A stretch of DNA of 64,000 nucleotides. It comes from Planctomycetota bacterium. GTDB taxonomy: Bacteria > Planctomycetota > UBA1135 > UBA2386. The DNA lies in the NCBI GenBank assembly GCA_947501605.1, contig CANMWZ010000021.1:1-64000 (forward strand). Direction: 5' to 3'. The notes beneath the pieces were generated by a model, which saw only the letters and a program-made list of their open reading frames with translations, ran no database searches and had not been told where the DNA came from. Made by a program: the position numbers and the translations under genes. Below, piece after piece: positions 38,028 through 57,140 of this stretch. Each line of letters starts with the position of its first letter. The stretch's first letter is position 1.

Positions 38028-39038
38028 TCACTTCACCGCCAAGCCTTCGGGCAACTCGCCGTTCAGCGCCTCGAGGAACGCGACGATCGATGCGACCTCG
38101 TCGTCCTTGAGCGTGCGGTTCAACTGGATCTTCGCCATGAGCGCAACGATCTCGGGCAGAGTCTTGACCGCGCCGTCGTGCATGTAGGGCGCCGTCTTGG
38201 CGACGTTGATCAGCGACGTCACCTTGAACATCTTCTTGTCGGCCTCGCTCTTGGTGACCTCGAAGCGACCCTCGTCCTTCGACGGATACGCGGCCGTCAC
38301 GCCGAGCTTCTGGTACATCTGCCCGCCCATGAGGCGCGTCGTGTGGCACGCCGTGCAGCCGACGTCGATGAACGTCTTCAGGCCGATCTTCTGCGGCGTC
38401 GTCAGCGCGCTGTTCTTGCCGTCGAGGAACTCATCGAACGCCGTCTTGACCGCGAGCTTGCGCGCGAACGCGCCGATCGCCAGCTTGGCATTGGCGGCCG
38501 TGACCGTGTCGCCTGCACCGAAGGCCTTGCCGAAGGCCTCGACCAGCTCGGGCTTGCCCTTGATCTTGCCGACCAGGTCGGCGTCGTCGGCCAAACCGTG
38601 CACCGCATCCTCGACCGTCGCGGCGCGACCGTCCCAGAACTGCGCGAACTGTCGATAGGCGTTGACCGTCGACAAGGCCTCGCGCTGGCCCTCGACCGGG
38701 GCCTTGGCGTTGGTGCCGTGGTTGGTCAGGTCGTGGCACGTCGAGCACGCCGCGTCACCGGTCTTCGACAGCTTCTCGTGATACAGCAGTCGGCCGAGCG
38801 CGGCCTTCTCATCGGTGACCGTGTTGTCGCTCTTCGGGGCCGGAGGCTCGCTACCGAAGAACGCCTTCAGCACTTCCTTGTCGAACTTCGGCGGTGCCGC
38901 CGGCTTCTTGCCGGGCTCCTGCGGCGATGCGACTGGCGCCAACTCGGCGATGACCTCGGTCACGCTGCCCGAACCGTCGGTCGCTGCGAGGAGGAAGGGG
39001 ACCAGGGCCGCCAACGCGAGGAGAGGCTTGTTGTTCAT
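38028..39038 (-). CDS. Di-heme cytochrome c peroxidase (CCP/MauG family)
   Basis: LGRLLYHE, CSTCH, QFWDGRA, CTACH, DEGRF, FKVTSLINVAKTAPYMHDG, MAKIQL; ATG at 39038. Confidence 0.88.
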   Translation of the reverse strand: MNNKPLLALAALVPFLLAATDGSGSVTEVIAELAPVASPQEPGKKPAAPPKFDKEVLKAFFGSEPPAPKSDNTVTDEKAALGRLLYHEKLSKTGDAACSTCHDLTNHGTNAKAPVEGQREALSTVNAYRQFAQFWDGRAATVEDAVHGLADDADLVGKIKGKPELVEAFGKAFGAGDTVTAANAKLAIGAFARKLAVKTAFDEFLDGKNSALTTPQKIGLKTFIDVGCTACHTTRLMGGQMYQKLGVTAAYPSKDEGRFEVTKSEADKKMFKVTSLINVAKTAPYMHDGAVKTLPEIVALMAKIQLNRTLKDDEVASIVAFLEALNGELPEGLAVK

Positions 39039-39092
39039 GGTGGTGTCGGACCGACGCCCCGAGGGTGTCAGCAATTTCGTTTGGCTGCGAAG

Positions 39093-40124
39093 TCAGCGCA
39101 TCGAACGGCGAGCGGCCTCGCGGTATGCGCCCGATGCCTCCCTCCAGTTACTCTGGAGTTCGTAGAGCCGACCGAGTGCGAACCAGGCTGGCGCCCCTTC
39201 GCGCTCGAGTGCGCTGCGCAACAACGGCTCGGCCGCGTCGAGCCGCTCGACCGCGAGGAGCGCCTCGCCGAGAGCCAGCGCCACCGCGGTGTCGTCCGGG
39301 AGCTCGCGGTGCACGGACTCCAGCAAATCGCGCGCATCCGGCTGACCGATGCGCCAGGCGGCCACCGCCTGCCCAGCCTGCGCAGCGATGTCGTGGCCGT
39401 CCTCCGTGAGCATGGCTTCGAACTCCTGCAGCGCGTCCTTCGCCTTCCCTGACCGCAGGAGCTGCCAAGCCTGCAGCATCCGCGTTGCGTGCTGCCGCAT
39501 CGCTGACGACGGCCCGAGCGACCCGTGGTCCTGCCGCGCGAGTTCTTCTTTCGTGATCAGGCCGAGCCCGACCTTGAGTCGCCCCGCGACCTCACGCGCC
39601 AACGTGATGACGTAGCCGCGCCGCAATACGTCGATCACCCGCGACGTCCGATCCACGATGTAGACCGTCGGGAAGGCGATCATGCCCATGCGCTGGTAGG
39701 CGCTTCGATCCGCGTCCCAACACAGCCGGAACGGAGCCGACAGCTTCTTTGCCGCGTCGATGACCGCTCCGTCGCGTTCCTCGCCGCAGAAGACCAGCAG
39801 GATCGAGCAGCGCCCGCGGCCATCGCCGAGCGTCTCGACCTGACTCGCCAATTCGTCGAGGAAGCGCACGCACAGTTCCTTGTCGCGGTGCAGGAACGCG
39901 ACCACCAAAGGCCCTTCGACGTCCTTGGCCTCGAGGGCCGCGTTCAGGGACGACGTCGAGTCGTCCGTCGCGAGCTTCAGCGGGAAGTCGGGCATCGGAT
40001 CGCCCTGCTCGGGACGTTGGTGCGTAGCGGCCCCGGACTCGACCGGTGCCTGCGCTGGGGCAGCCGCGATCGCCGCCGCGAGCAGCAGGATCGAGAACCT
40101 AAGTCGGGCGAAGCAAGTCATCAT
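39093..40124 (-). CDS. Secreted redoxin (thioredoxin/peroxiredoxin-like fold) plus TPR-repeat protein
   Basis: GDPMPDFPL, AFPTVYIVDR cis-Pro motif, C-terminal TPR-like helices; no CXXC. Confidence 0.7.
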   Translation of the reverse strand: MMTCFARLRFSILLLAAAIAAAPAQAPVESGAATHQRPEQGDPMPDFPLKLATDDSTSSLNAALEAKDVEGPLVVAFLHRDKELCVRFLDELASQVETLGDGRGRCSILLVFCGEERDGAVIDAAKKLSAPFRLCWDADRSAYQRMGMIAFPTVYIVDRTSRVIDVLRRGYVITLAREVAGRLKVGLGLITKEELARQDHGSLGPSSAMRQHATRMLQAWQLLRSGKAKDALQEFEAMLTEDGHDIAAQAGQAVAAWRIGQPDARDLLESVHRELPDDTAVALALGEALLAVERLDAAEPLLRSALEREGAPAWFALGRLYELQSNWREASGAYREAARRSMR

Positions 40125-40151
40125 GGCACAGTCCTCTTCACGGCCGGGTGG

Positions 40152-41531
40152 TCAGTACTTCTTGTCGCGCGGGCCGGTTCGATCGTACTCACGCGTCACG
40201 TGGCATCCCGGCGTGCACTGGCCGCCGCTCGTCAGCGGCACGTAGTTGGTCGGCAGGTCCCAGATGCCGAACGGCACCGCATCGCGGATGTGGAACGGAT
40301 GCTGGCTCGCATGCACGTCGTGGCAGGCACGACAGGTGCGGCCCTTGCGGTCGCGATTGACGTGCACGTAGTGCAGATTGCGATCGCCCTGGCGGAAGTT
40401 CGTGACCGTGTCGGTGTACTTCTGCAGTACGCGCTCCTGCTCGTGGCAGCCAAAGCAGAGGCTGAACTCCGTCAGCTCGAACTTCTTGGTGTAGAACTCG
40501 GGCTCGTAGTTGCGCACGAGCATCCGGAAGTTGTCGGAGCCGTGCGGATTGTGGCAGTTCGGACACTGCCCCTCGCGGATCGGACCGTGGTGGTCCGGGT
40601 ACTTCTGCAGGTGGTCGCCGATGCCGACCAGCTTGCCGATGGGCTTCTGGTGGCACTTGAGGCACAGGTCGATCGGCACGGCCTCGAGCAACTTCGGTTC
40701 GTGCGAGCCGTGCACGTTGTGACAATTCAGACACGAGCGCTGCGTCTGGATCGCACCGTGCGGCGTCTTCGAGTCCTGAGCCATCTTCCGCACGTCCTCG
40801 TGACAGCGGAAGCAGAGCTCGGGCACGGTCGCCCGCAGATGCATGCCGTTGTCGGCCCCGTGCGGGTCGTGGCAGTTCGGGCACGACTGCTGCACCGGCG
40901 GGTGTGTCACCTGCGACGCCGCGATGTGATTGCCCATCTGGTCGTGGCACGAGATGCACAGGGTCGTGCGGGGTGCCCGTAGGAACTGCTGCTCGTCCGA
41001 ACCGTGCGGGTTGTGGCACAGCGTGCAGGCGCCGACCGAGACCGGCCCGTGCGCCTGCTTCGAACGACGGACGTGTTCGCGATCATGGCACTGGAAGCAG
41101 AGACTGCCGTCGTTCGGCTTCTTGAACAGGGTCGGCTGCGCGCTGCGGTGCGGGTCGTGACACTGGGTGCAGAGTCCCGTGCGATACGGGAAGTGCTCGT
41201 ATTTGGGCTGATTCTTGGGGTGGCACTGTTCGCACATCGACGGGATGTTCGCGAGCGTGATCGCCTCGAACGCGTGCTCATCCTCCTCGCCGCTTGCCGC
41301 GTGACACGTCGTGCACTGCCCTTCGCGCACCGGCGCATGCACACTGACCCCGGCTTGGTAGGTGTCGTGGCAACTGCTCGTCGTGCAGGTGCGGCCCTCG
41401 AGCTTGGCGGGCGGCGTGCGAACGGCTTCCGGCTCCTGCGGCGACGCCCACGCAATCGACGCGGTGCAGACGAGAAGGCCTATCGTGCGGGCCCACGCGA
41501 GCAGCCGACAGTTTTGAATGGGACGGTTCAC
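40152..41531 (-). CDS. Periplasmic multiheme cytochrome c with paired-CXXCH (DmsE/MtrA-like) repeats, about 15 hemes
   Basis: 13 CXXCH plus CTTSSCH (CX4CH) and CTPGCH (CX3CH); repeated H.P...C..CH.PH....L...LC..CH unit; signal peptide. Confidence 0.92.
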   Translation of the reverse strand: MNRPIQNCRLLAWARTIGLLVCTASIAWASPQEPEAVRTPPAKLEGRTCTTSSCHDTYQAGVSVHAPVREGQCTTCHAASGEEDEHAFEAITLANIPSMCEQCHPKNQPKYEHFPYRTGLCTQCHDPHRSAQPTLFKKPNDGSLCFQCHDREHVRRSKQAHGPVSVGACTLCHNPHGSDEQQFLRAPRTTLCISCHDQMGNHIAASQVTHPPVQQSCPNCHDPHGADNGMHLRATVPELCFRCHEDVRKMAQDSKTPHGAIQTQRSCLNCHNVHGSHEPKLLEAVPIDLCLKCHQKPIGKLVGIGDHLQKYPDHHGPIREGQCPNCHNPHGSDNFRMLVRNYEPEFYTKKFELTEFSLCFGCHEQERVLQKYTDTVTNFRQGDRNLHYVHVNRDRKGRTCRACHDVHASQHPFHIRDAVPFGIWDLPTNYVPLTSGGQCTPGCHVTREYDRTGPRDKKY

Positions 41532-41665
41532 TGTCGATGGTGCGGCGACGAGAGAGAGGCGAGGGTGGTTGCGCGCAATCGCGCGGATGCATCCACTTTG
41601 TGAAATACGACAGCGACATCCGAATTGCGTCTTCGTCGACCTGCACGCGAGGTGCGACCTCGTTC

Positions 41666-44437
41666 ATGCGGCCCGTCCTCCTCATCCTCCTCACCACCGG
41701 TCTCGCCGCTAGCACTTCGGCCCAGGACGCAGCCGCAGGCCGAGCCACCTACGAGTGGATCTGCATGGCCTGTCACGGTCCAGAGGCCGAGGGACAACAG
41801 GCCCTGCACGCGCCGTCCCTGCGCCTCCAAGAAGACTGGTACCTAGAGGCGCAGCTCGAGAAGTTCCGCGCCGGCGCGCGCGGCGCGCATCCCGACGACA
41901 CGACGGGTTCGCCGATGCGGCTGACGGCGACCGTGCTCGACGACGACAACATCCGCGACGTCGTGGCCTACGTCGTGTCGCTCGGCAAGAGGGGACTGCC
42001 GCCAACGCAGCACTCACTGGCCGGCGATGCGACGCGCGGCCAGACCCTCTATGCGATGTGCGCTGCGTGCCACGGCGCCGACGGTCGCGGCAATCCCGCG
42101 CTTCGTGCCCCGGGGCTCGCGGGACAATGGGACTGGTACCTCGCGCGCCAACTCGGCAAGTTCCGCAGCGGCGCTCGCGGCGGCGATCCGCGCGATGTCT
42201 ATGGCGCGCAAATGGCACCGTTCGCGCGTTCGCTGCCCGACGACGAGGCGATCGTCGACCTCGTTGCTTACATCCGCTCGTTGCCGCCGCCATTGCCCGA
42301 GAAGCCACCTGCAGCTCCGAACCCCGAGAACGGCGCGCGCGAGTTCCAGATCTGTGCCTCGTGTCACGGCGACCAGGGCCAGGGCAACACGGCCTTCCAC
42401 GCCCCGTTCCTCGGCGCGCAGGGCACTTGGTACGTCGTGCGCCAACTGCAAAACTTCCGCCGCGGCGTCCGCGGTGTCGAGCCCTCCGACGTGTTCGGCA
42501 CGCAGATGCGCGCGCTGATGGCGAACGTCGACGACCAGACGATCCTCGACCTCGCGGCCCACGTCGCCGCACTGCCGCCGCGACCGCAGACCAATGGACT
42601 GACCGTGGCGGGCGCCGATCTCGCACTCGGCGAGCAGATCCACAAGAAGACCTGCTCCCCGTGCCACGGCGCGCAAGGCGAGGGCAACCGCGTTCTCAGC
42701 GCTCCCGCACTCGCCGGCCAGGATGCCGCCTACCTCGTGCGCCAGCTCGACGCATTCCGCCGAGGCCTGCGCGGTGCCGACCTGCGCGACCCACCCGGCC
42801 GCATCATGCGGGCCTGGTCCGCGAGCCTCGCCAACGAACACGAAGTGCACAGCGTCGCTCTGTTCCTCGCCGGGCTCGAACCCGTCCGCGCCGACGATCA
42901 CGCCGCGCCCGACAAGGCCGTCGTCGCCCTCGCCGCGGCGCCGCCGCCGATCGGCCCCGACCCGACGGCGCCGCGCGTCTGGCCCAAGGGACTGCTGGCG
43001 CCGCGCAAGGACCAGCCAGTCGAACCCAAGCCGGCGACCGGCCCGAGTCTGACGCCCGCTCCGGAAGAGCCGGCCGCGGCACAACCGGTTGCGACCATCG
43101 AAATGCCGGCCCCCGATGCGCCCCCCACCGGTGCCAGCCTGTTCGCGACGTGCATCGGCTGTCACGGCACCGCGGCCCAGGGCAATGCGAAGTTGCGCGC
43201 ACCGGTGCTCGCCGGACTGGGCAGTTGGTACGTCACCGAACAACTGAAGAAGTTCCGCGCCGGCTGGCGCGGCGCCCACCCGATGGATGCCGCTGGCTCG
43301 AGCATGCGGCCCATGGCCGCAACCCTGCCCGACGAGGACGCGATCCGCATGGTCGCGGACCACATCGGCAGCCTGCCGATCGCCGAGCCGGACGCGCCGC
43401 GACTGCGCGGCAATGCCGCCCGCGGCGCTTCGCTGTATGCGGCCTGCGCCGGCTGTCACGGCATCGACGGCAAGGGCAACGAGGGGCTGAAGGCCCCGGC
43501 GCTCCTGCATCAAGCCGACTGGTACCTCGCGACGCAGTTGCGCAACTTCAAGTCGGGAGCCCGCGGCGCCCATCCGGCTGACTCTGCGGGCGGGATGATG
43601 CGGCCCATGGCTGCGGGCCTCGCCGACGAGACGGCCATCGCCGACGTCGTGACCCACATCGTCACGTTGCGCGGCGGCACGCCACCGGTTGCCGAGGGCA
43701 GTGAAGCGGCGGTCGCCACTCCGGCCGAGGAGAACCCCGCTCCAGCGGAAGGCGAACCCGCGAGCGAAGAGGACACTACCACCGACGAGACCGCGGCCGC
43801 GACGAACGTCGTGCTCGCCGGCGACGCGGCGAAGGGGCAGGCCCTGTTCGCGACCTGCATGGCCTGCCACGGCACGGACGGCCGCGGCAACGAGGCCCTG
43901 CAGGCGCCACAGATCGCCGGGCAGGAACCCTGGTACCTCTCGACGCAGCTGCGCAACTTCAAGAACGGCGTGCGCGGCGCCCACCCGCAGGATGTGAAGG
44001 GCATGCAGATGCGGCCGATGGCCATGATGCTCGCCGACGATCAAGCGATCGCCGACGTCGCAGCCCACGTACACGGCCTGCAGCCGGGCTCCGGCAAGAT
44101 CACGCTGGGTGGTGATGCGACCAAGGGCCAGCAGCTCTACACCTCGTGCATCGCGTGCCACGGCATGGACGGGAAGGGCAATGCCGCACTCAAAGCGCCG
44201 TCGCTGGCCGGGCAGCAGGACTGGTACCTCGCGCGCCAGCTGCTGAACTTCCGCGCCGGGATCCGCGGGGCGCACCAGGACGATGCCGCGGGTGCGCTGA
44301 TGCGGCCGATGGCCGCGACCCTCGCCGACGAAGTGGCGATCCACGACGTTGCTGCCTATCTCGCGACGCTGGGGCGCACTGCCGACGAAGCCCGAGAACC
44401 GAAGGCGCCAGAGACCCCCAAAGAGGACGACAAGTAG
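41666..44437 (+). CDS. Eight-domain class I cytochrome c (four tandem cytochrome c4-like di-domain modules)
   Basis: CMACH, CAACH, CASCH, CSPCH, CIGCH, CAGCH, CMACH and CIACH, each followed by AP.L..Q..WYL..QL..F..G.RG and a G..M axial Met; Pro/Glu-rich linkers; ATG at 41666 with signal peptide. Confidence 0.92.
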   Translation: MRPVLLILLTTGLAASTSAQDAAAGRATYEWICMACHGPEAEGQQALHAPSLRLQEDWYLEAQLEKFRAGARGAHPDDTTGSPMRLTATVLDDDNIRDVVAYVVSLGKRGLPPTQHSLAGDATRGQTLYAMCAACHGADGRGNPALRAPGLAGQWDWYLARQLGKFRSGARGGDPRDVYGAQMAPFARSLPDDEAIVDLVAYIRSLPPPLPEKPPAAPNPENGAREFQICASCHGDQGQGNTAFHAPFLGAQGTWYVVRQLQNFRRGVRGVEPSDVFGTQMRALMANVDDQTILDLAAHVAALPPRPQTNGLTVAGADLALGEQIHKKTCSPCHGAQGEGNRVLSAPALAGQDAAYLVRQLDAFRRGLRGADLRDPPGRIMRAWSASLANEHEVHSVALFLAGLEPVRADDHAAPDKAVVALAAAPPPIGPDPTAPRVWPKGLLAPRKDQPVEPKPATGPSLTPAPEEPAAAQPVATIEMPAPDAPPTGASLFATCIGCHGTAAQGNAKLRAPVLAGLGSWYVTEQLKKFRAGWRGAHPMDAAGSSMRPMAATLPDEDAIRMVADHIGSLPIAEPDAPRLRGNAARGASLYAACAGCHGIDGKGNEGLKAPALLHQADWYLATQLRNFKSGARGAHPADSAGGMMRPMAAGLADETAIADVVTHIVTLRGGTPPVAEGSEAAVATPAEENPAPAEGEPASEEDTTTDETAAATNVVLAGDAAKGQALFATCMACHGTDGRGNEALQAPQIAGQEPWYLSTQLRNFKNGVRGAHPQDVKGMQMRPMAMMLADDQAIADVAAHVHGLQPGSGKITLGGDATKGQQLYTSCIACHGMDGKGNAALKAPSLAGQQDWYLARQLLNFRAGIRGAHQDDAAGALMRPMAATLADEVAIHDVAAYLATLGRTADEAREPKAPETPKEDDK

Positions 44438-47400
44438 TGGCTCTGCTGACGCGGCTCGGTCACCCGCTCGTGACGGTGGCGCTGACTGCAGTGCTGACAC
44501 TCATCCTCGGCGTCGGTGCCTTGGTCGCAGCCGCGCGCGGCAGCGCGCACGCGCGCGCGCTGGTCTTCGACCTACCGCTCCTCGACGCGCTCCTCTGCGT
44601 CTGTGCGCTGCACCTGCTGCTCGCCCTCGTCTCTCATTGCCGCCGCGGCCTCGCCCAGTGGTACTTCGCGTGCCTCGATGCGGGATTGCTGCTGCTCGCT
44701 CTCGGCACACTGTTGACCCGACTTCTCGGCGCGATCGGCAGCGCGACCCTCGCGGTGGGAGGAACGGCGAACGCCTTCGAGCTCCCTGGCACCGAACTGC
44801 ACGCGCGCTGGGGTGCGGATCGCGAGGCCGTGGCCGATCTCGGGGTCGTGCCGCCCACGGGCCCGGTGCATTGGCAAGGCGACGAGGGACCGCTCGTTCA
44901 CATCGTCGACGTCGCGACCGACGCGGAACTGCAGGTAGGCATCGGCCCGGGCGCTGCCGCCGACGGCCCTGGGGTCGCGCTGCGGTTCGGCACGCTGAGC
45001 ACCTCGTTCTCGACCTGGTTGCTCGGCAGCACGCCGTTCTTCCGGCAGAAGCAGGTGGGCCCCGTCGACGTCGAGTATCTCGTGGCACCCGACGACACCA
45101 CGCTGCAGGGTTGGTTGCCCGCGCAGGCGACCGACGACGGCCAGGTCACGGTCGTGTTCGCCGGAAGCGGCGAGCGATTGGTGCTCGATCTGCCGCGCGA
45201 GGTCGCGAGCGAACGCAGAGTCGGCGACGTCACCGTGGTCGCGCACCGCTACCTCCTGCATGCGCGCCTGATCGGCGAGCAACTCGTAGACGACGTATCG
45301 GCACCGGTCAATCCGGCCGCCGTCGTCGCAGTGCGGCGCGGCGAGGTCGTCGAGACCCACACCGTGTTCAGCCAGCAACCGGAGTTCAACCTCATCGCCG
45401 GCCGCGGCCAGAATGGCCTCGTCGACGCGATCGAGCTCGCGGCAAACGGAGTAGGCAAGCAACGCCGCGTGCGCATTCTCGGTGCGAAGAACGGACGGCA
45501 CTTCGTGCAAGTGCTGACCTCGACCGCACGCGGCGAGGCGTGGCCGCTCGAGCTCGGACGATCGGTCGTACTCGGCGACCTCGGCCTCGACGCCATGCTC
45601 GAGAAGTTCCTGCCGCACGCGACAGCACGCGCGTGGCCCAGACCAGCGGCGCGAATGGGCAGCGGCAGCGACTTCGTGTGCATCGCCAAGGGAACTCCGG
45701 ACACCACGACGGGCGCGGAGTGGCTGCGAATCGGCGCCGATGCCACGCTCCAGATCGACGGCGCTCCAGTCGTGCTGACCTACCGCGCGCGGCGCGCGAA
45801 GTTGCCCTTCGACCTGAGCGCCATGTCGGCCACCGTCGATCGTCGACCCGGCAGTTCCCTGCCTTCGCGATACACGAGCGAACTGGCGATCCGCGACGGC
45901 AGCGCACCAGCGCAACGCGTGACGCTGGGCAATCACGCGCCGACCGACTGGTTCGGCCACCGTCTCGTGCACCGCGGCTACGCCCCGGGTCAGGGCGACC
46001 AGCCGGCGACCATCGTGCTCGCAGTCGGTCTCGAGCCCGGCCGCCACCTCGTGCACGCGGGGCTACTCCTCCTGCTTCTCGGCGCGTTCGGCCTATTGCT
46101 GCGCCGCGCGCCTCGTTCGCACTCCTCAGGACTGACATGGCTGGTGTCCGCCGCCGCGCTGCTCGCACCGCTGTCGGCCCAGTCCTTCTCTGCACTGCCG
46201 CTCGACTCCACGCGAGACTGGCCCGTCCAGCACGACGGTCGTCTGCAACCCCTCGAGTCCTGGGCCCGCGCACAGCTCGCGGCGATCGGCGGCCCCGCGG
46301 CGCGCGACATCATCGAGCCCCTCGAGTTCGTGTGGGCTCTGCAGTTCGCGCCGGCGAGCGTGCGCCTGATGCCACTCGTCCGGGTGACCGGGACGGAACT
46401 GCGCCGTTCGCTGCAACTGCCAGAGGACCGCCGCAGGATGTCGTACGACGCACTGCTGGCCGACGCGGCGTTTCGTTCACTCGTCGAGGCCGCGCAGGCC
46501 GACTTGCCAGAGGGCGCAGAACGGCTGCCCGTGGCGCAGCAGGCACTCGAGGTCTACGAGCGGCTACTGGCGATGGCCGCGATCACGGACGGAACCGCGC
46601 TTCGGATGCTGCCGACCGGTCGCGCCGATGGTTCGTTTGCGAGTCTTGCCGATTTGCGCGGCGACGGGTCGGCGCAGGCAACGCGACTGCTCGCTGAACT
46701 GCAGGCGATCGCTGCGGCCGCGCGCGCGGGCGATGCCGCGGGCTTCGGGGCGCACGCCGCCGCCTTCCGCCGACTCGTCGACGACGCCAACGGCGGCAGC
46801 ATCGCCGGCGCGGCCGAGCGGCAATGGGAACTCATGCACGCCGACCTCGATGCGTCGACGCGCGCCCTCTTGCTGTACCTGTTGGCGACCGTGCTCCTGC
46901 TATGGCCCACGCGTTCGCACTGGCCTGCGCGATTCGGTGCCGCGGCGCAAGGAGCAGGCCTCTTGCTCCAGGTGGCGAGCGCCCTCGCGAGCGCCGCTGC
47001 GACCGGCCGACTGCCGGTCGCGTCGCCACCAGAAGGGCTGCGCTTCGCGGCTTTGGCGGCAGTGGCCGTCGCGTTCGCACTCTCCTTTTGCGCGAAGCGC
47101 ACGGCACCGCTCGCGGCCGCTTCGCCGTTCGCGCTGACCGCTCTGCTGCTCGCGGCCGGGGCGCCGACCAGCGATCCGTTCGGAGTGCTGCCCCCAGGAC
47201 TTGCCGACACGGCTTGGCTGTCCGTGCACGGCGCTGCGAACGCAGCCGCATTCGGCGCACTGGCCCTTGCGGCACTTCTGGCGCACGGCGTCGCCCTGCG
47301 ACCGACCGACGAACGCCTGCTGCGCGCAATGACCGCGGCGCGCTTGCTCGGCACGGCCTTGCTGATCGTCGGCATCGCCTCGGGCGTGGCGTGGGCCGAG

Positions 47401-47712: not shown

Positions 47713-47732
47713 GCCTGCGACTGCCGCAGACT

Positions 47733-48797
47733 TCAGCGCCCCTCCCCCGGCGGCGTCGACGTCGCGGCTCCGTCGCTGCTCGGCTCGATCAAGTCCCCGC
47801 GCAACAGGACGACCGCATGCTTGCTGCGCAACTCGGCGAGCCACCGGGCACGTGCCAGCTTGAGGTGCTCCTCGTGCAGCCACTGCTCGATCGCGGCCCG
47901 CATGTCGGCGAACGACTGCCGCGCGGGCGGCTTCTCCTCGGTGCACCGCAGGATGTGGAAGCCGTGCAACGAACGGATCACTTCGGTCGTCTCGCCGACA
48001 CCGAGCGCCTTCGCGGCGTCGCCCAGCGCCTGCATGCGAAAGGAGCCGACCTGCTGCATGCCAAGGTCGCCGCCCTTCTCCGCGAACTCGTCCTCCGAGT
48101 AGATCCTCGCCACGGTTCCGAACGGCTTCCCGGCGCGCAACTCGGCCATGGCGGCATCGATCTTCGCGCGCTTGCTCTCCTCCTCGTGCCGGATGCGCGA
48201 CGGATCGACGCCGACGAAGATCTGGAAGTAGTGTGCTTCGCGCGGGGCCATGAACGCAGTCGGGTCCGCAGCGATGCGATCGTCATAGAGCGACTGCAGC
48301 ATCGCGTCGGCCGGCCGCGCGATGCCTTTCGCGAGACGCTCCTCGTTCTTGCGGATCAGCACGCGCCGCTCGAGGCTCGGTCGCACTTCGTCGAACAGCG
48401 CCTCGCGGGCCGCCGCTGCCAGGGCTGCGTACTCCGAGCCAGCTTCCCGGAGCGCGGCCTCGAACTCGACGCGGAGTTCCTCGTCCCCGGCCGTGAGCCC
48501 TCGAGCCAGCGCATCGAGATAGACCAAGTGCTTGACCACCAGCTTGTCGAAGGCTTCGCGGCGGAACGTGGCCATCTGGTCGGGCGGCACGCGGCGGTGG
48601 TAGAAGTTCAGCGGGATCTGGCGGCCCACCTCGGCAATCAAGTCGGACAGCAGCACCTGGCGATCGCCGACCGTAGCGATGCACGGATCCGCCGACGGGG
48701 TCGCCGGCCCGGGGGGAACCGAAACGGGCGGGTGCTGGGCGCGCACCACGGCGAGCAGGGCGAAGACGCAGGCGACGGCTCGGAATCGGTTCGGCAT
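47733..48797 (-). CDS. PpiC-type peptidyl-prolyl cis-trans isomerase (SurA/PrsA-like chaperone)
   Basis: IATVGDRQV, FGTVARIYSED, KGGDLG, IRSLHGFHIL; ATG at 48797 with signal peptide. Confidence 0.88.
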   Translation of the reverse strand: MPNRFRAVACVFALLAVVRAQHPPVSVPPGPATPSADPCIATVGDRQVLLSDLIAEVGRQIPLNFYHRRVPPDQMATFRREAFDKLVVKHLVYLDALARGLTAGDEELRVEFEAALREAGSEYAALAAAAREALFDEVRPSLERRVLIRKNEERLAKGIARPADAMLQSLYDDRIAADPTAFMAPREAHYFQIFVGVDPSRIRHEEESKRAKIDAAMAELRAGKPFGTVARIYSEDEFAEKGGDLGMQQVGSFRMQALGDAAKALGVGETTEVIRSLHGFHILRCTEEKPPARQSFADMRAAIEQWLHEEHLKLARARWLAELRSKHAVVLLRGDLIEPSSDGAATSTPPGEGR

Positions 48798-48923
48798 GGG
48801 CGAGGACCTTGTGTGCGGATGCTCCGCGACCACAACTGAGCACCCGTGTGTGGGATTGCATGGTGGCCCGAATTCGGGGCCCCGCCGCGCATGAATGGGC
48901 AAGAGTCGGGGGCCGAAGAGCCC

Positions 48924-48941
48924 ATGCGAAAGCCGGGCCAA
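48924..48941 (-). promoter_or_regulatory. Possible sigma54 (-24/-12) promoter upstream of the PpiC gene
   Basis: Minus strand reads TTGGCCCGGCTTTCGCAT, with GG-N10-GC spacing; weak match in high-GC DNA. Confidence 0.2.
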
Positions 48942-49041
48942 ACAGAAACTACCGCTCTCCTCCCCGCATTCCCGTGTTCGTGCGTCGGCCTCTCGTCCGC
49001 CGTCGCGCGCCTCTCTCGTTGCTTCTCCTCGCACCCTGGGC

Positions 49042-49767
49042 ATGTCGCGTCACCACCAACCGGCCGGATTGAACTCGCGCAGTGGGCTGTGGTGTGGCCG
49101 CGCTCGAGGCCCGCGTCGGGCAAGCTGGATCGTCGTCGCCGGCATCTGCCTGTTCGCTGCGTGCTCCGCAACGAACAACTACGCCGTCATGAGCTTCCTG
49201 TTCGATGGCGTCCCGCCGCCCGAAGGCCACGTCGTCACCCCGCTCGGCCCACCAGCCCCAGTCGAGTCGGCTGCGGTGGTCTCGAACGACGGCCCGCCGG
49301 CGCCACCTCGGAACTCGGTCCATCGTCCGTACGCCGAAGGTCGCTGCGACAAGTGCCACGCCAGCCGCGAGGGCAAGCCCGCGGGCATCAGTTCGATCTT
49401 CCAGGGCGTGCCAATGCTGCTGAAGCCGGTCGAGCAGCTCTGCCTGCAGTGCCACACCATCGAGAGCAAGCGCTTCCTGCACGCCCCCGCGATCTCGGGC
49501 CAGTGCATCTTCTGCCACGAGCCCCACCGCTCGCCGACCCATCACATGCTCCTGCTGCCGACGACGCGCGAACTGTGCGCGCGGTGTCACCGCGGGGCGA
49601 CGTTCCTGACCGAGAAGGCGCACGAGAAGTACGGCGAGCGGGAGTGCATCGAGTGTCACGACCCGCACGCAGCCGACCACGAGTTCAACCTCCTGCCAGG
49701 CGCACGCGAAGGGGCACCGGAGCCGCGCCAGCCGACGGTGTCGCGCCCGAAGCCCGGAGAGTGGTGA
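49042..49767 (+). CDS. Pentaheme c-type cytochrome lipoprotein
   Basis: CDKCH, CLQCH, CIFCH, CARCH, CIECH; lipobox-like LFAAC followed by SFLFDGVPPP; start uncertain. Confidence 0.85.
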   Translation: MSRHHQPAGLNSRSGLWCGRARGPRRASWIVVAGICLFAACSATNNYAVMSFLFDGVPPPEGHVVTPLGPPAPVESAAVVSNDGPPAPPRNSVHRPYAEGRCDKCHASREGKPAGISSIFQGVPMLLKPVEQLCLQCHTIESKRFLHAPAISGQCIFCHEPHRSPTHHMLLLPTTRELCARCHRGATFLTEKAHEKYGERECIECHDPHAADHEFNLLPGAREGAPEPRQPTVSRPKPGEW

Positions 49768-49788
49768 TCCGGACGGATCTGGCGAGCC

Positions 49789-51768
49789 ATGCCCGACCTG
49801 CCGAGAACCACTAGGCCAACGGAGACCCGGCGAGTCACCGCGATCGCGAGCAGCGCTCTGTGCACGCTGGTCCTCTGCGGCTGCAGCAGCTCGCGCGCGG
49901 AAGGCAGCGGCGGCGTCCACCTGCGGCGATTCGAGCCCGAGGCGCGGATCGAGTCCGAGGTGCGCAACGAGAAGTACACGGGTGGCGCGGGCGCCAGAAC
50001 GGACCAGAAGATCTTCCGCGAAAACGTCCAGTTCGATTTCGAAGGCGACGCCTACCACCCGAAGCTGGCAACCTTCCGCGGACTGCTCGACCTTGGGCTC
50101 GAGCAACGCGAAGTGGACCAGGCAGGCGCCCCGGAAACCGTGCGCGCCAACAACGACAACAACCGCTACGACCTGCACGTCGAACTCCTGAAGGACCACC
50201 CGTACTCGGTGCACGTGTTCGCGTTGCGCAACCAGGCGCGCGTTCGCCAGACCTTCTTTCCGACCAGCGACGCGGTCGTGACCAAAGAAGGAGCCACGTT
50301 GATGGCCAAGGAATGGGTCATTCCGTCGCAGATCGAGGTGTCGCACTACGATTTCAAAGGACGCTACAACGACGTTCGCGAGGAACAGCGCGACATTGTC
50401 AATGCGACCGGCGCAGCCAACAGCGATGCGTTCAGCACCTACTACCAGGTGTTCACGCAGAGCGTCGACAGCAACCTCGCCGGCGGTCGCTACGACGACT
50501 TCCAGGCGATCGGCGGCATGAACTGGCGGTTCGGCCCCGACTACGCCGACTCGTTCGGCATCGACGCGCAGCACCGCACGCAGACCGGTGACACGGAGAA
50601 CGAGAACACGAGCCTCGCCGCTCGATCTCGCCTGCTGTTCAACGAGGACCTCGAGAACCGGAGCGGGCTGTCCGCCGGTCGCAGCTCCTTCGGCACCGAC
50701 GCGGATCGCACCGATCGCACGGACGCCTACAGCGAGATGGAGCACCGGCTCTACGAGAGCCTCACGACGACCGTCCGCGGCGACTGGCTCGAGCAGCACA
50801 TCGGCGAAGGCGACCTGAATCGCACCGGCGGCAGCGCCCGCACCCGCTACAAGAAGAACGTGGCCTTCGGCGAGGTGAACGCGAGCTACCTCTTGTCCCG
50901 GTCGCGGCAGGAGGAACAGGGCCGGTTCGGCGCCAACGTCACGGTGAGCGACGAGCCTCACGTGTACGTCCTCGGCAACCCCATCCTGCTCGCCAATCAG
51001 AACATCGACGCGAGCCGGATCCTCGTCACCGACGCGACGGGGGCGATCATCTACTCAACGCCGACCGACTACCTCGTCGAGACCATCGGAACGGTCACTC
51101 GACTCGTGATCCCCGGCACGAGCCTGATCATTCCGGGCCAGACGATCCTGGTGACCTACGCCTACGCCATCGCCAACGACCAGACGTTCGACTCCGACAT
51201 GCAGTTCGCGTTGCTGCAGTTCGTGTTCGGGGAGACGTTGACCCTCGAGGGCCACTGGAGTGCACTCGACCAGGACCTAGTCGCCGGCGTTTCGAACGCC
51301 ACGCTGGACCACGCAGAAGAAGTCGGTGTCGCGGCGCGCATCCGCTACGGCATGCAGAACTTCGACGTCGAGTACGAGGACCACGACTCGCTCCTCGCGC
51401 CATACACGCGCGCCCGGACGACGTGGTTCACGTGGACACCGCTGACCCACAACATCACGTTGAACACCAACGCGTCGGTCTACGACACTCTCTACAAGGA
51501 CGAGGACCTTCACGAGCGAGGCCAGTCGGCGCTGGTCGGGCTCAGCTGGCAGCGCTTTGAGTCCTTTACCTGGGACCTTCGCGCCGAGGCTCGCCACAGC
51601 GAACTGCGCACCGAGGAGGGCTTCGGCACGTTCCTGCAGAGCATCACCCAGTACCGCTGGCGAAAGTCCGCTCTCGACCTGACGGTTCTCGCGAGCCAAG
51701 AGAGCTGGGACGTTTCGAGCGATCGCGACATCCTTCGCGTCACGTTGACCTTCCGGAGAAAGTTCTGA
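49789..51768 (+). CDS. Outer-membrane beta-barrel (porin of a porin-cytochrome conduit)
   Basis: Alternating amphipathic beta-strand pattern throughout, C-terminal RVTLTFRRKF with terminal Phe, located between multiheme cytochromes. Confidence 0.75.
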   Translation: MPDLPRTTRPTETRRVTAIASSALCTLVLCGCSSSRAEGSGGVHLRRFEPEARIESEVRNEKYTGGAGARTDQKIFRENVQFDFEGDAYHPKLATFRGLLDLGLEQREVDQAGAPETVRANNDNNRYDLHVELLKDHPYSVHVFALRNQARVRQTFFPTSDAVVTKEGATLMAKEWVIPSQIEVSHYDFKGRYNDVREEQRDIVNATGAANSDAFSTYYQVFTQSVDSNLAGGRYDDFQAIGGMNWRFGPDYADSFGIDAQHRTQTGDTENENTSLAARSRLLFNEDLENRSGLSAGRSSFGTDADRTDRTDAYSEMEHRLYESLTTTVRGDWLEQHIGEGDLNRTGGSARTRYKKNVAFGEVNASYLLSRSRQEEQGRFGANVTVSDEPHVYVLGNPILLANQNIDASRILVTDATGAIIYSTPTDYLVETIGTVTRLVIPGTSLIIPGQTILVTYAYAIANDQTFDSDMQFALLQFVFGETLTLEGHWSALDQDLVAGVSNATLDHAEEVGVAARIRYGMQNFDVEYEDHDSLLAPYTRARTTWFTWTPLTHNITLNTNASVYDTLYKDEDLHERGQSALVGLSWQRFESFTWDLRAEARHSELRTEEGFGTFLQSITQYRWRKSALDLTVLASQESWDVSSDRDILRVTLTFRRKF

Positions 51769-52784
51769 TGCCACGCCTCGTCCTGGCCCTGTCGTCACTG
51801 ATTGCCGCCGCATGTGCCGGGCCGGCGGAGTTCGTGCACCGGCCGAAGGAGCCCGTAGCCTGGCCGTACGCCGACGCGACGCCGCGGGTCGAACTCGAGT
51901 TGGTGTACGGTGGAAGCCAGGACGTCGTCCGGCACCCGGGCTTCTTCGCCTGGTTGGCCAACGCGTTCGGCGGCGAGAACGAAGTGCACCTCGTCAGTCC
52001 AGCCGGAATGTGCCACATCGGCGAGATGCTCTGGATCGCGGACCCAGGCGCCGCCTGCGTGCACCGGTTGTCGTTCGTGAGCGGCGAACACCTCCAGTTC
52101 GCGGGCTCGACCGAGCATCCCTTCGCGACGCCGATCGGCGTGGCCAATGCAGGCGACGGCGGCATCTACGTCACCGATTCGGGAACCGGCTACGTCACGC
52201 AACTGACGGCGGAGGGCAATGCCACCCGCTGCTTTGGTGGCCCGGAACTAGCTGGGCGACCGACGGGCATCTGCTTCGATCGCGCGCGGCGACAGCTCGT
52301 CGTGGTCGACACCACCGGCTGCCGACTGCACGTGTTCGATGCCGAGGGGAAATGGATCCGCTCCGTGGGGACGCGCGGCACCGAACCCGGCCAGTTCAAC
52401 TACCCGACGCATGCGGACCTGATGCGCGACGGCGGCATCGTGGTGGTCGACAGCCTCAACTTCCGGGTGCAGCGCCTCTCTCCCGATCTGGAGCCGGTGG
52501 CTTCGTTCGGACGCGTGGGCCGCGGGCCCGGCGACTTCGCCAACCCGAAGGGTGTGGCCGTCGACGCCGCCGATAGGATCTGGGTCGTCGATTCGATGTT
52601 CGACAACGTGCAAGTCTTCGACCCAGACGGTCGGCTCCTTCTGGCGGTTGGCTCGTCGGGCAATGCCGATGGCCAGCTTTACCTGCCGACGGGCATCCAC
52701 ATCGATGCCGACGGCCGTATCCACGTGGCGGATGCCGGCAACTCGCGCATCCAGATCCTGCTCCTGAAGGAAGGTGTCCAGTGA
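51768..52784 (+). CDS. NHL-repeat six-bladed beta-propeller lipoprotein
   Basis: Repeats GQFNYPT, VDSLNFRVQ, GDFANPKGVAVD, VDSMFDNVQVFD, GQLYLPTGIHID; lipobox IAAAC. Confidence 0.9.
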   Translation: MPRLVLALSSLIAAACAGPAEFVHRPKEPVAWPYADATPRVELELVYGGSQDVVRHPGFFAWLANAFGGENEVHLVSPAGMCHIGEMLWIADPGAACVHRLSFVSGEHLQFAGSTEHPFATPIGVANAGDGGIYVTDSGTGYVTQLTAEGNATRCFGGPELAGRPTGICFDRARRQLVVVDTTGCRLHVFDAEGKWIRSVGTRGTEPGQFNYPTHADLMRDGGIVVVDSLNFRVQRLSPDLEPVASFGRVGRGPGDFANPKGVAVDAADRIWVVDSMFDNVQVFDPDGRLLLAVGSSGNADGQLYLPTGIHIDADGRIHVADAGNSRIQILLLKEGVQ

Positions 52785-54487
52785 AGGCGGTGACTGTTCC
52801 CTTGCTCGCGTTCGTCGTGGTCGCAGCGAGCGCTTTTGCCCAGCACTCGATCGTCGGCACCAAACACAACCTGTCGGCGAGCGGGCCCGGCACGTTCAAG
52901 GCGGCGACCGAGAACCAGATCTGCGTGTTCTGCCACGCGCCGCACCACGGCCGTACGCAGACCCCACTGTGGAACCGCAACGACTCGACCGCGAGCTATC
53001 TCACCTACACGAGCTCGACGTTCCAGGGCACGATCGCACAGCCGAACGGCTCGACCAAGCTGTGCCTGTCGTGCCACGATGGCACGATTGCGATCGGCAG
53101 CGTCGTGAGCACGAACCAGGAACTGGCGATGGCCGGCGGCAATCGGTTCATTCCTGCTGGCCGGTCGACGCACATCGGCACCAATCTCCGCGACGACCAT
53201 CCGGTCTCCTTCAACTACGCGAACTCTCGCGGCGGCAGCGGGGCAGGCTTCGTCCCGGCGGGCGCGATCCCGCCCCCGGTCAACCTCGACCACAACGGCG
53301 AGATGCAGTGCACTTCGTGCCACGAGCCGCACAACAACGAGAACGGCAACTTCCTGCGCGTGCCGTATCGCAATGGCCAACTGTGCCTCTCGTGCCACTC
53401 CCCGACGCACTGGGGCACCGCGTCGCACAAGCTGTCGACCGCGACCTGGAACGGCCAGGGCTCCGATCCGTGGCCGAAGGCGGACTACGAGTCCGTGGCC
53501 GAGAATGCCTGCCTCAACTGCCACACGCCGCACGGCGCCGGCAGCAGTTCGCGCATCCTCAACTTCATGCCCGACGAGGCCAACTGCGCCCGCTGCCACA
53601 ACGGCAACGTCGCGCAGAAGGACATCTTCCGCCAGATCCAGAAGCCCTACGCGCACCCGGTCATCCAGAGCAACGGCATCCACGACCCGGTCGAGAACCC
53701 ACTGACCATGGTGCGCCACGTGGAGTGCCAGGACTGCCACAACCCCCACGCGGCTCGCTCGGGTTCGGCGCCTGCGCCCAACGTTCCCGGTCCACTGACG
53801 GGCCAGAGCGGCGTCGACACGAATGGCAACCCCGTCGCCCAGATCTCGTTCGGCTACGAGGTCTGCTACAAGTGCCACGCCGACAACAACAGCGGCACGC
53901 CCTACATCTCGCGGCAGCACCCGCAGACGAATGTGCGGCTCGAGTTCGATCCGTCCAATCCCTCGTTCCATCCGATCGAATCCACCGGACGCAATCTCGA
54001 CATGCCGAGCCTGCGCCCAGGTTGGAGCCCGGCGAGCCGGGTGGCCTGTTGGGACTGCCACGTGAGTGACGAAGCGCCGAGCTATGGCGGCACGGGCCCC
54101 GCCGGGCCACATGGCTCGATCCACCAACCGCTCCTCGGTGCGAACTACAGCCGCATCGACAACGTCCGCGAGAACGCGGGCCTCTACGCGCTCTGCTACA
54201 ACTGCCACTCGCGGTCGAGCATCCTCAACGACGAGTCGTTCGGCGAACACGAACGGCATCTCGACCACGTCAACACCGGCTGCTCGACGTGCCACGACCC
54301 GCACGGCGTCTCGGCAACCCAGGGCAACGCCACGAACAACACGCACCTGATCAACTTCAACGTCGCGATCGTGCAGCCGAACCCGAACAACGGCATCCTC
54401 GCCTACACGGACCTGGGCCGCTTCCGCGGCCAGTGCACGTTGATGTGCCACGGCGAGGTCCACAACAACCGGCAGTACCCCCGCTGA
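52781..54487 (+). CDS. About 12-heme cytochrome c with an N-terminal OmcE-like tetraheme domain
   Basis: SIVGTKHNLS..QICVFCHAPH..PLWNR..KLCLSCHDG..DDHPV..CTSCHEPH..FLR..LCLSCH, then 7 more CXXCH and CTLMCH. Confidence 0.9.
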   Translation: MKAVTVPLLAFVVVAASAFAQHSIVGTKHNLSASGPGTFKAATENQICVFCHAPHHGRTQTPLWNRNDSTASYLTYTSSTFQGTIAQPNGSTKLCLSCHDGTIAIGSVVSTNQELAMAGGNRFIPAGRSTHIGTNLRDDHPVSFNYANSRGGSGAGFVPAGAIPPPVNLDHNGEMQCTSCHEPHNNENGNFLRVPYRNGQLCLSCHSPTHWGTASHKLSTATWNGQGSDPWPKADYESVAENACLNCHTPHGAGSSSRILNFMPDEANCARCHNGNVAQKDIFRQIQKPYAHPVIQSNGIHDPVENPLTMVRHVECQDCHNPHAARSGSAPAPNVPGPLTGQSGVDTNGNPVAQISFGYEVCYKCHADNNSGTPYISRQHPQTNVRLEFDPSNPSFHPIESTGRNLDMPSLRPGWSPASRVACWDCHVSDEAPSYGGTGPAGPHGSIHQPLLGANYSRIDNVRENAGLYALCYNCHSRSSILNDESFGEHERHLDHVNTGCSTCHDPHGVSATQGNATNNTHLINFNVAIVQPNPNNGILAYTDLGRFRGQCTLMCHGEVHNNRQYPR

Positions 54488-54526
54488 GTCGTTCGCCGCC
54501 GACGCGAGGTCGGCGGCGCCCTCGAC

Positions 54527-55684
54527 TCACTTGTTCGTCGAAGCCGGCAGGGGCACGGACTCGGCCCCGGCGGGCGTCGTCTTCCCCGGCAGGTCATAGA
54601 CCGCGTAGCGGTCCTTCGACGCGGGCGCCTCGGAGCGACCGAGCGCGTAGAAGCTCAGCTTGCGCGGACCGTAGAAGCTCGTGACCGCGATCAGGCGCTC
54701 CGCCACGAATCCGGGTTCGAGCTGATCGCGGAACCGCTCGAGACCTTCGGTGCCGATCCACAGGCCGCGCGGCAGATAGAGATCGCCGGGCTCGACGCCA
54801 CCGTCGCCGAAGAACATCAGCGGATGCCCGTTCTTGCTGAGCATCTGGCAGTTCTCGTAGAGCGAGTCGAGCACGAACACGATGGGCCCGTCGACGGCAA
54901 CGGCCTTGGGCCGGCCGAAGGAACCCGGCGCGTCGCCGGACTCGCCGATCTTGCGCACGAAGTCGAACTTCTCGTCGAACACGATCACGCGCTGGTAGAT
55001 CGCATCGACCACGTAGACGTAGCCGTGCTCGTCGACGGCGAGCCCGGTCGGCGCGCGCAACGAACTCTCGGTGCTGTTGGGGTCGGTGTGCAGCGTGTCG
55101 ACCTGTTCGCCGGTCGTGGCATCGACGACGCGGACGTTGCGAATGGCACTGTCGGCGACCAGCACGCGGTTCTTCCACAGGGCCACGGCCAGCGGCACGC
55201 AGGCCTTCGGATCCCCCCAGGGTCCCAGTTCGCGCACAAGGTTCCATTCGCGATCGAAGACGATCACCTGGCGCCGGCCGCGATCGGCGATGTAGACGAG
55301 GCCGTCGACGCCGAGATGCATGTCGGTCGGCACCTGCATTGCGGCTCGTCCGCTGGGCACGATGGCGTCGAGCTGGCGCGTCGTCAGGTCGAGCCGATGG
55401 ATGACCATCAGTTGGGCGTCGAGCGCGTAGGCGACACCGTCGCGCACGAACACACCGATCGGTCGCTGGATCGGCCGGTCGGCCTCAGCCTCCTCGCCGA
55501 ACAGGAAGCGATCGAGTGCCGAGGGTCCGGACTCGATGTCCTTGCTGCCGGAATAGGAGGCCAGGAACTGCACGCGCGGCGGATCCGGCGGCGGTGGCCA
55601 CATCGGCGGCGGGGCGTCGACCTCGGCCTTGGATACGGCGCAGGCGGCCGCGAACAGAAGGAGTAGGAGGTACCTCGCAGCCAT
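54527..55684 (-). CDS. NHL-repeat beta-propeller lipoprotein
   Basis: WPPPPDPPRVQFL N-terminus, PTGLAVD, GSFGRPKAVAVD, LYLPRGL; lipobox FAAAC. Confidence 0.88.
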   Translation of the reverse strand: MAARYLLLLLFAAACAVSKAEVDAPPPMWPPPPDPPRVQFLASYSGSKDIESGPSALDRFLFGEEAEADRPIQRPIGVFVRDGVAYALDAQLMVIHRLDLTTRQLDAIVPSGRAAMQVPTDMHLGVDGLVYIADRGRRQVIVFDREWNLVRELGPWGDPKACVPLAVALWKNRVLVADSAIRNVRVVDATTGEQVDTLHTDPNSTESSLRAPTGLAVDEHGYVYVVDAIYQRVIVFDEKFDFVRKIGESGDAPGSFGRPKAVAVDGPIVFVLDSLYENCQMLSKNGHPLMFFGDGGVEPGDLYLPRGLWIGTEGLERFRDQLEPGFVAERLIAVTSFYGPRKLSFYALGRSEAPASKDRYAVYDLPGKTTPAGAESVPLPASTNK

Positions 55685-55818
55685 ATCGATTCAGGAAGTC
55701 GGGCGACGAGATGCGTCGGAGGGAACAGCTCGCGTCGGAATGGAGCCGTCGCGTCCATCGATCGGTCGGCAGGATCCGCGCGTGCAGCCGACCCGCGAAC
55801 GCAATCGAGCCACGACCT

Positions 55819-56496
55819 CTACTTGTCGTGGCAGGTGAGGCAGAGCCCCGACGGCGCCGACGCCTTTCGGATCGCGACGCGCAACAGATAGGTCGGTCCG
55901 CTGTCGGGCGTCTGCACGTCCTTGTTGTGGACGTCGTGGCAGGTGCGGCACTGCACCTTGCCGCCCTCGAGCACGTCGTTGATCACGCGCCCCGGCACGG
56001 TGCCGAACTGACGGGTGGCAGGATTGTGCAGGCCACGATCAGCGATGTTGTCGTAGGTGATCGAGACCGGGTGCGTGTTGGCCATGTTGCCGTTCGGCAG
56101 GCCGGGAACGACTGCAGACGCACGAACCTGCGAGATGAACGTCGCGCCGCCGCTGGTCTGGCCGTTGAAGTGCTCGAGTGCAACCGTGCCGTCGTGGCAG
56201 CTCAGGCACAGCTTCGCGGAACCATCGGGCGAGCTGATCGTGCCGTTCAGCGTGGGGCTCGCGTAGACGGTGAACGTCTGCTGCGACAGCGAACGACCCC
56301 AGAGCAGCGGGTTGTTCAACTGCGTCTGCGGCCGCGCCTTCTCGTGCGGGATGTGGCACACGCCGCAGATCTCGCCAGCCTTGCTGACGTTGAACGACGC
56401 GGCGGAGAAGTCGTGGACGCTGCCGACGATGCCCGACTGGGCGGTCGCGGCGAGAGTGAGAGACGCGAGTGCGATGAAGAGGCGAAGAGGATTCAT
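55819..56496 (-). CDS. OmcE-like tetraheme cytochrome c (candidate nanowire subunit)
   Basis: GIVGSVHDFS..EICGVCHIPH..LW.R..TFTVY..KLCLSCHDG..NTHPV..CRTCHDVHN..LLR..LCLTCHDK; motif order and ~225-aa size match Geobacter OmcE as I recall it. Confidence 0.85.
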   Translation of the reverse strand: MNPLRLFIALASLTLAATAQSGIVGSVHDFSAASFNVSKAGEICGVCHIPHEKARPQTQLNNPLLWGRSLSQQTFTVYASPTLNGTISSPDGSAKLCLSCHDGTVALEHFNGQTSGGATFISQVRASAVVPGLPNGNMANTHPVSITYDNIADRGLHNPATRQFGTVPGRVINDVLEGGKVQCRTCHDVHNKDVQTPDSGPTYLLRVAIRKASAPSGLCLTCHDK

Positions 56497-56949: not shown

Positions 56950-57140
56950 CCAGATACTCCTTCTGCGCGGCGAGGGGACGCGAGAACGCGTAGACGAGGA
57001 TGCCCGACGTCGCGCGATCGAGGCGATGCACCGGGAACAGAAACCTGCCGAGCTGGTCGCGCACGATCTGCAGCACGGCCGGCGCGTCGGGATGCCGCTT
57101 GCCGCGAGCCGGCGCGAGCCGCTACACGAAGCCTCGTGAA
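56950..57140. repeat. Right copy of the direct repeat: internally deleted truC fragment (including the HRLD codons) plus ligase upstream region
   Basis: Matches 34307-34489 with a 33-bp deletion and 4 substitutions, then 28 bp identical to 34742-34769. Confidence 0.9.

Follow-up and report, generated by a model that had tools for sequence, protein, structure and literature searches.

The omcE cluster of Desulfuromonadia (G. sulfurreducens, 7TFS; D. soudanensis, 9YUQ) comprises an OmcE subunit with four CxxCH motifs and four further His, two beta-propeller lipoproteins, a large beta-barrel, further multiheme cytochromes and nearby heme-maturation genes (PMC13712944). A minimal omcE cluster has been defined, for which five phyla are listed; Planctomycetota is not among them, and the string "planctomyc" has no occurrence in the main text of that paper (its supplement may differ). 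The Uet cluster of Ca. Tenderia electrophaga and Gallionella has been linked to electron uptake, and the formation of a polymer was already suggested in the preprint (bioRxiv 10.1101/2022.05.06.490989; PMC10734462). Here, we describe a locus of 12 open reading frames (ORFs), A to L, at positions 38028-56496 of a 64,000-nucleotide stretch (the window) of contig CANMWZ010000021.1 from a Planctomycetota bacterium (GCA_947501605.1). It is a real member of the omcE-cluster type that shares the parts list of the Uet cluster. With a probability of roughly 0.47, we favor the reading that it encodes a horizontally acquired omcE-type outer-membrane electron conduit in which L forms the filament and net inward flow is favored.

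Relation to described clusters

All components named above for the omcE cluster have counterparts here, the further multiheme cytochromes being G, J and C, which were matched by type to the Geobacter pair. The locus differs from the omcE cluster in its planctomycete host, its setting as a repeat-flanked insertion and its genes on both strands, and it adds to the core a PpiC-type protein, a TPR protein, a CcP-like diheme protein and a tandem c4 chain. In terms of protein types only, it has in common with Uet a tetraheme cytochrome, a peptidyl-prolyl isomerase (PPIase), a predicted 28-strand barrel, two NHL proteins, a counterpart of the undecaheme cytochrome (11 CxxCH), CcsAB and a TPR protein; the Uet host likewise has ACIII and cbb3 oxidases. 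Three c7 trihemes, a cupredoxin, bat genes and the uetA-J order are features of Uet that were not found among the island ORFs.

The original prediction placed part of the novelty in the gene combination. This does not hold: the core is the published minimal omcE cluster (PMC13712944), which occurs in about 12 phylum-level groups among the best 80 loci, and the PPIase, CcsAB and TPR proteins complete the Uet parts list. Because the omcE core is common and already described, the surprise is limited. Porin-cytochrome or iron-reduction potential is also in print for metagenome-assembled genomes of Planctomycetota (PMC10732223, PMC13264449, PMC5566968), and OmcE-like cytochromes with porins have been reported in Acidobacteriota and Verrucomicrobiota (bioRxiv 10.64898/2026.05.27.727921). 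No description of an omcE cluster in Planctomycetota was found in the literature, in which further omcE, osc and Uet papers or supplements may list some. What is new is that the cluster lies on an island, with a c4 chain and a decaying heme lyase, in an aerobic host whose phylum is absent from the published omcE accounts found.

The OmcE-family protein and its 12-heme relative

The assignment of the 225-aa protein L to the OmcE type, proposed earlier, was borne out by searches against solved sequences. The only full-length matches of L among solved sequences are 9YUQ (phmmer E 4.6e-15) and 7TFS (E 1.7e-11), and a 44-row profile of the L family recovers the same two filaments with E values of 2e-39 and 2e-42; OmcS gives only a local match to this profile (E 6e-6). 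His 28, 48, 51, 101, 142, 187, 190 and 223 align with OmcE, and all eight are kept in 120 of the 120 listed homologs, which are the best of 4636 matches (4636 of 5042 candidates scored). The C-terminus lies two residues past the last CxxCH, the same as in OmcE. Judged by full-length homology, four CxxCH motifs and four further His, L is a member of the OmcE family. One heme of OmcE is ligated by a His of the next subunit across the interface (PMC12954529). As the His set of OmcE is invariant in these homologs and heme ligation in OmcE crosses subunits, L may reasonably be expected to polymerize into a filament. A predicted complex of L, four hemes and the propeller K scored 0.00, and its controls were not folded; it counts neither for nor against binding.

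Residues 9-207 of J form a complete OmcE-like module (E 4e-32 to 7TFS), which is followed by eight more hemes. For its 12 hemes, J has 16 conserved non-motif His, as judged from 78 of the 80 loci compared (two with missing N-termini were dropped), and CX3CH is the final motif in about 75 of these 78. The fusion looks modular, since five genomes of the order match only the C-terminal part. The ratio dN/dS for J is 0.14-0.18. In its domain composition, J is a candidate for the base or tip of the filament; a whole OmcE module within a longer cytochrome sets it apart from the omcE operons, for which the discussion of PMC13712944 reports no tip-like subunit candidate. The propellers accompany both cytochromes: one directly precedes J in 71 of the 76 loci with room for it, and one follows the L-type gene in 50 of 56.

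The distribution was examined from J, whose scan gave 127 relatives; the best 80 were kept as loci, selected by J, with 10-kb flanks. They represent about 12 phylum-level groups; Planctomycetota is the label of 12 among the 80. The set of L, two NHL proteins, H and J is complete in 45 of the 48 loci that span 16 kb or more and in 51 of the full 80; the same flanks contain CcsBA-like genes in seven of the 80, PpiC in four and D in one. J homologs were found in 12 of 400 other genomes of the phylum and 19 of 300 other genomes of the order. The cluster is widespread but patchy. Seven loci (L030, L040, L043, L050, L055, L085 and L095) contain OmcE-like genes with five CxxCH motifs within the cluster, which match a possible "leaky" family of PMC13712944.

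The outer-membrane barrel

An AlphaFold2 model of H built with a 64-row alignment is a confident all-beta barrel (pLDDT 90.5); folding from the single sequence gave a pLDDT of 30.5, and the alignment-based model was used instead. By our own reading of the strand list, it has 28 membrane strands (30 are possible), with a small beta domain (about residues 393-452) inserted after strand 17. The best structural match in a wide search is MtrB (6r2q_B; Z 18.2, root-mean-square deviation 8.5, 435 aligned), TonB-dependent receptors are nearly as close (Z 16), and ushers and LptD also appear in the Foldseek list. All top structural matches are barrels, which agrees with the outer-membrane barrel claimed before. 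A C-terminal Phe is present in 55 of the 64 rows, and a homolog of H adjoins an OmcE-like gene in a Desulfuromonadales locus (L096). H belongs to no Pfam family, its profile matches no solved-chain sequence, and a PF11854 (MtrB_PioB) match is absent in five of five genomes of the genus, that of the host included. H is modeled as an outer-membrane beta-barrel of large size, a fold that shows a barrel and not a function. The NCBIfam "tail tube" match of H, which scores far below the cut-off and spans the inserted domain, was not read as a sign of phage origin.

The resemblance of H to MtrB in structure and of C to MtrA, as in the MtrAB conduit (6R2Q), together with a predicted 28-strand barrel, UetC, that has an undecaheme partner in the Uet system, would fit a porin-cytochrome conduit without long filaments, in which J or G fills the barrel and L is a monomer or a short cap. 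OmcE-like tetraheme genes are so widespread (PMC13712944, and as counted above) that not every one need polymerize. We consider this arrangement unlikely: L keeps the full His set and the termini of OmcE, in which a heme is ligated by the His of the next subunit (PMC12954529). Differences from MtrAB are that H has neither an MtrB_PioB Pfam match nor a profile match, that its strands number about 28 and a further domain is inserted among them, and that C and H are not neighbors. PCC3 and PCC4 (PMC5566968) were rejected as models for the locus, which has no inner-membrane b-type protein and different heme counts.

Other host contigs hold further genes of this kind. In one (C1:352720-359072), an 18-heme DmsE/MtrA-like cytochrome above the TIGR03508 cut-off is followed by an unclassified ORF with Phe as its last residue; the two are probably a second porin-cytochrome pair, one that lacks an MtrB match in Pfam. 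In another (C18:78484-85835), genes in a row encode an Fe-S flavoprotein, a protein with 23 hemes, a probable barrel with a terminal Phe and a protein with 16 hemes; together they are a candidate third conduit with PCC3-like heme counts. At C37:11460-14621, a protein with 10 hemes combines an ExtM-like part with LVIVD repeats.

Organization of the locus

All 12 ORFs are open (Table 1) and form five transcription units, C-B-A (-), D-E (+), F (-), G-H-I-J (+) and L-K (-), rather than one operon; stop and start codons overlap at D/E, H/I and I/J. A promoter and terminator scan did no better than chance. The six cytochromes contain 43 CxxCH motifs; in 2000 shuffles of their residues, the mean was 0.28 and the highest count 3. 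A has two, D eight, G five and L four, while the 15 motifs of C consist of 13 CxxCH, one CX4CH and one CX3CH, and the 12 of J of 11 CxxCH and one CX3CH. Pfam assigns NHL to I and K, Rotamase to F and Cytochrom_C_asm to the CcsBA-like E, and lipobox-like AAAC signals, read by eye, start I and K. The genes listed in the original prediction, namely six c-type cytochromes with 2, 15, 8, 5, 12 and 4 hemes, two NHL propeller lipoproteins, a PpiC chaperone, a barrel and a CcsBA-type fusion, are therefore present; its list left out the TPR protein B.

Table 1. Features of the locus and its flanks (window positions)
Feature	Position	Strand	Description
A	38028..39038	-	diheme CcP/MauG-family protein; E 5e-47 to 1zzh
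B	39093..40124	-	exported TPR protein
C	40152..41531	-	15-heme MtrA/DmsE-like paired-CXXCH cytochrome, probably periplasmic; E 1e-19 to 6r2q_A
D	41666..44437	+	923-aa chain of eight class I c4-type domains
E	44437..47712	+	CcsBA-type fusion with degenerate WWD motif; E 1e-27 to 7s9y
F	47733..48797	-	exported PpiC-type prolyl isomerase
G	49042..49767 (start uncertain)	+	pentaheme lipoprotein with Pro-rich linker; directly upstream of barrel H
H	49789..51768	+	659-aa predicted outer-membrane beta-barrel, C-terminal Phe
I	51768..52784	+	NHL beta-propeller lipoprotein, directly upstream of J
J	52781..54487	+	12-heme cytochrome with OmcE-like module (residues 9-207)
K	54527..55684	-	NHL beta-propeller lipoprotein, directly downstream of L
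L	55819..56496	-	225-aa OmcE-family tetraheme, candidate filament subunit
RluA-like pseudouridine synthase gene	33897-34691	-	Pfam PF00849
Left direct repeat	34354..34497		inside RluA-like gene; 95% identical to 56964-57107
Second left repeat segment	34722..34773		just upstream of RluA-like gene; 87-89% identical to 57093-57144; insert begins after it
Right duplicate of RluA-like fragment and upstream DNA	56950..57144		internally deleted; then acyl-CoA ligase gene

A repeat-flanked island in a lake planctomycete

In four of four congeners, the RluA-like gene and the acyl-CoA ligase gene are direct neighbors, whereas here about 22 kb lie in between. A genome of the same family (G018) contains the same block in the same gene order at another site, and the congener G004 has a more distant cluster at yet another location (J 58%). 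No integrase was found among the island ORFs scanned, and J has no match in a plasmid collection. With its junctions read from the assembly, the block is a repeat-flanked insertion, for which horizontal acquisition is the best explanation. Also in the island, positions 36876-37360 encode a DUF4160 domain with its start apparently in another frame, possibly a toxin-antitoxin remnant, and three ORFs without a Pfam match lie at 34923-36398 and 37375-37900, the last of which is common to G018 at the edge of the cytochrome block. Outside it, a DNA methyltransferase-like gene at 58744-60036, opposite topA, is conserved in both congeners whose stretches reach that far.

The planctomycete origin proposed earlier, as opposed to Desulfobacterota, is supported along several lines. 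The host genome has 10 PSCyt1 domain matches (none in 14 control genomes), and no tubulin/FtsZ match was found in it (91% complete, as for all host-genome negatives below). The nearest named homologs are from Planctomycetota, as are the five best named J loci; the exception is one H homolog, 90% identical, labeled Vicinamibacterales, on a 2.9-kb contig. In a quick tree of 81 rows, J groups with Planctomycetota records in a clade of strong support (SH-aLRT 100), and topA of the contig is 73-88% identical to that of congeners, which ties the contig to its genus. Of the 22 sequencing runs listed, 20 contain the stretch; they come from 10 studies whose material was lake water, freshwater or sediment, and six of the runs are possible sources of this DNA.

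For RNA, contigs of four runs from four studies, found via J-K-L, were considered; runs X20-X22, with a small or no share, were left out. RNA-library contigs from three studies lie over L (X13, 55215-56474; X15, 55657-55967 and 56020-56492; X19, 55896-56337), a weak hint of expression. In these three runs, E, G and H are mostly uncovered, and contigs of this kind can neither show absence nor rank genes. At 56964-56968, an X11 contig has 28 letters that are missing in the window and present in the left repeat copy, explained either by strains that differ in the right repeat or by reads that stem from the left copy.

Heme lyase E and the question of decay

E is homologous to CcsBA of H. hepaticus. 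Other residues stand in place of its WWD tryptophans and first transmembrane His, and the second transmembrane His lies out of register; the two periplasmic His are kept. An active CcsBA heme lyase has an intact WWD motif and four heme His, a combination that, judged from the alignment, E does not possess. WWD and heme His are intact in the orthologs L026, L028 and L029 and partly degenerate in L025. The CcsA part of E is 28% identical to the outgroup L028, compared with 48% for the intact L026; for J, H and F the distances are equal. On contig C16, the host has a housekeeping CcsA whose WWD motif is intact. In addition, L025, L026 and L028 carry a hexaheme gene upstream of PpiC for which the host genome has no counterpart. 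This gene (L025:5354-6250, L026:5371-6150, L028:5213-6000) shows weak similarity to the OmcE profile (E 2e-14) and recalls the uetA-uetB pair. The word "complete", used of the system earlier, is therefore an overstatement, and of the "dedicated CcsBA-type fusion" the homology stands while "dedicated" is doubtful, because E has lost the WWD tryptophans and both transmembrane His positions and evolves fast.

Part of the peroxidase loop is missing from A. This loop and the residues lost with it are presumably catalytic in peroxidases, and A may therefore be an electron carrier only. Two more CcP-like paralogs occur in the host, at C4:70558-71493 (53% identical to A) and C51:5956-7023.

The degenerate, fast-evolving E, the lost hexaheme gene, the missing peroxidase residues of A and the eroded flanking repeat could together indicate a decaying island from which a working conduit is no longer made. 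This is quite improbable, as all 12 ORFs are open, dN/dS of J is low as given above, the housekeeping CcsA has an intact WWD motif and RNA-library contigs cover L.

The c4 chain and the direction of electron flow

D consists of eight tandem c4-type domains, each with a CxxCH and a conserved axial Met, and its best solved matches are cytochromes c4 and c552; the counterpart in G018 has 12 domains. At high similarity, D occurs in three of 301 genomes of the order, all of them with J, and J in 20 of the 301. Hemes of the c4 type with His/Met ligation are typically high-potential donors to oxidases. Encoded in the host genome are aa3 and cbb3 oxidases, the former next to an ACIII-like operon, as well as isocitrate lyase and a clade II NosZ above cut-off; RuBisCO, unlike in the Uet host, and NiFe hydrogenase were not found, and NrfA and NapC families gave marginal matches only. 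Since the c4 chain sits in a host with aa3, cbb3 and clade II NosZ, uptake of electrons is at least as likely as export. The midpoint of the OmcE bundle is -145 mV (abstract of PMC13712944). With c4 potentials taken from general knowledge, flow from c4 to the wire would be uphill, and the downhill path would run from the wire through C and D to O2 or nitrous oxide (N2O). The "charging" of a nanowire, as originally predicted, presupposes outward flow, which is not favored by the c4 chain and the host terminal enzymes.

A respiratory nanowire in the manner of Geobacter, which is the reading of the original prediction and in which electrons exit via L filaments to Fe(III), Mn(IV) or humics once O2 and N2O run out, would account for a core shared with the omcE cluster of iron reducers, for freshwater sediments among the samples holding this DNA, and for the ACIII-like complex and other multiheme clusters of the host. 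We regard it as doubtful, because no clear quinol dehydrogenase of the NapC/CymA type was found in the host genome, high-potential acceptors are what the co-inherited c4 chain points to, and the step from c4 to the wire is uphill on the potentials given above.

In the favored reading of an inward-flowing conduit, L would be exported, loaded with heme (probably by the housekeeping CcsA of C16) and polymerized like OmcE into a surface filament displayed through H. J would most likely end the filament as its base or tip; I and K, as propeller lipoproteins, and F, as an isomerase, would help with assembly. On its periplasmic side, the conduit would connect to high-potential carriers through C, which is MtrA-like, and D, the chain of His/Met c4 domains, so that electrons from reduced humics, Fe(II) or neighboring cells would pass through the wire, C and D to cbb3, aa3 or NosZ, as extra energy for a heterotroph. 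The gene identities, the barrel fold, the conserved His set, the insertion and the host enzymes are what the analysis shows; polymerization, each protein-protein contact in this scheme and the direction of flow are inferred. The parts list in common with the Uet cluster, which comes from an organism that takes up electrons, also speaks for the scheme. Several points weigh against it. Both solved OmcE filaments are from metal reducers (PMC13712944), and the ACIII-like complex or the ExtM-like cytochrome of C37 could feed electrons outward. The rarity of D relative to J in the order leaves most copies of the cluster silent on direction. The local CcsBA is degenerate and the hexaheme gene is missing. 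Finally, the contigs of RNA run X11 extend over every one of the 30 bins, including intergenic DNA, which makes DNA carry-over possible in that run.

A more specific proposal is tentative: an OmcE-type nanowire operating in reverse, encoded on a mobile island, with which an aerobic, N2O-respiring freshwater planctomycete might harvest electrons from reduced humics, iron or other cells and pass them through an OmcE-fused 12-heme adaptor and a high-potential c4 chain of 8-12 domains to terminal oxidases. J would then be the filament anchor or tip for which the omcE literature has no candidate.

Implications

Solved bacterial cytochrome filaments are from anaerobic metal reducers. The locus suggests that omcE machinery moves as an island into an O2- and N2O-respiring lake planctomycete, where it is linked to high-potential cytochromes, and J and the propeller pairs are concrete candidates for how nanowires get anchored, capped and secreted. 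If uptake is true, nanowires would also feed oxygen respiration and couple humic and iron redox cycling to heterotrophs at oxic-anoxic boundaries.

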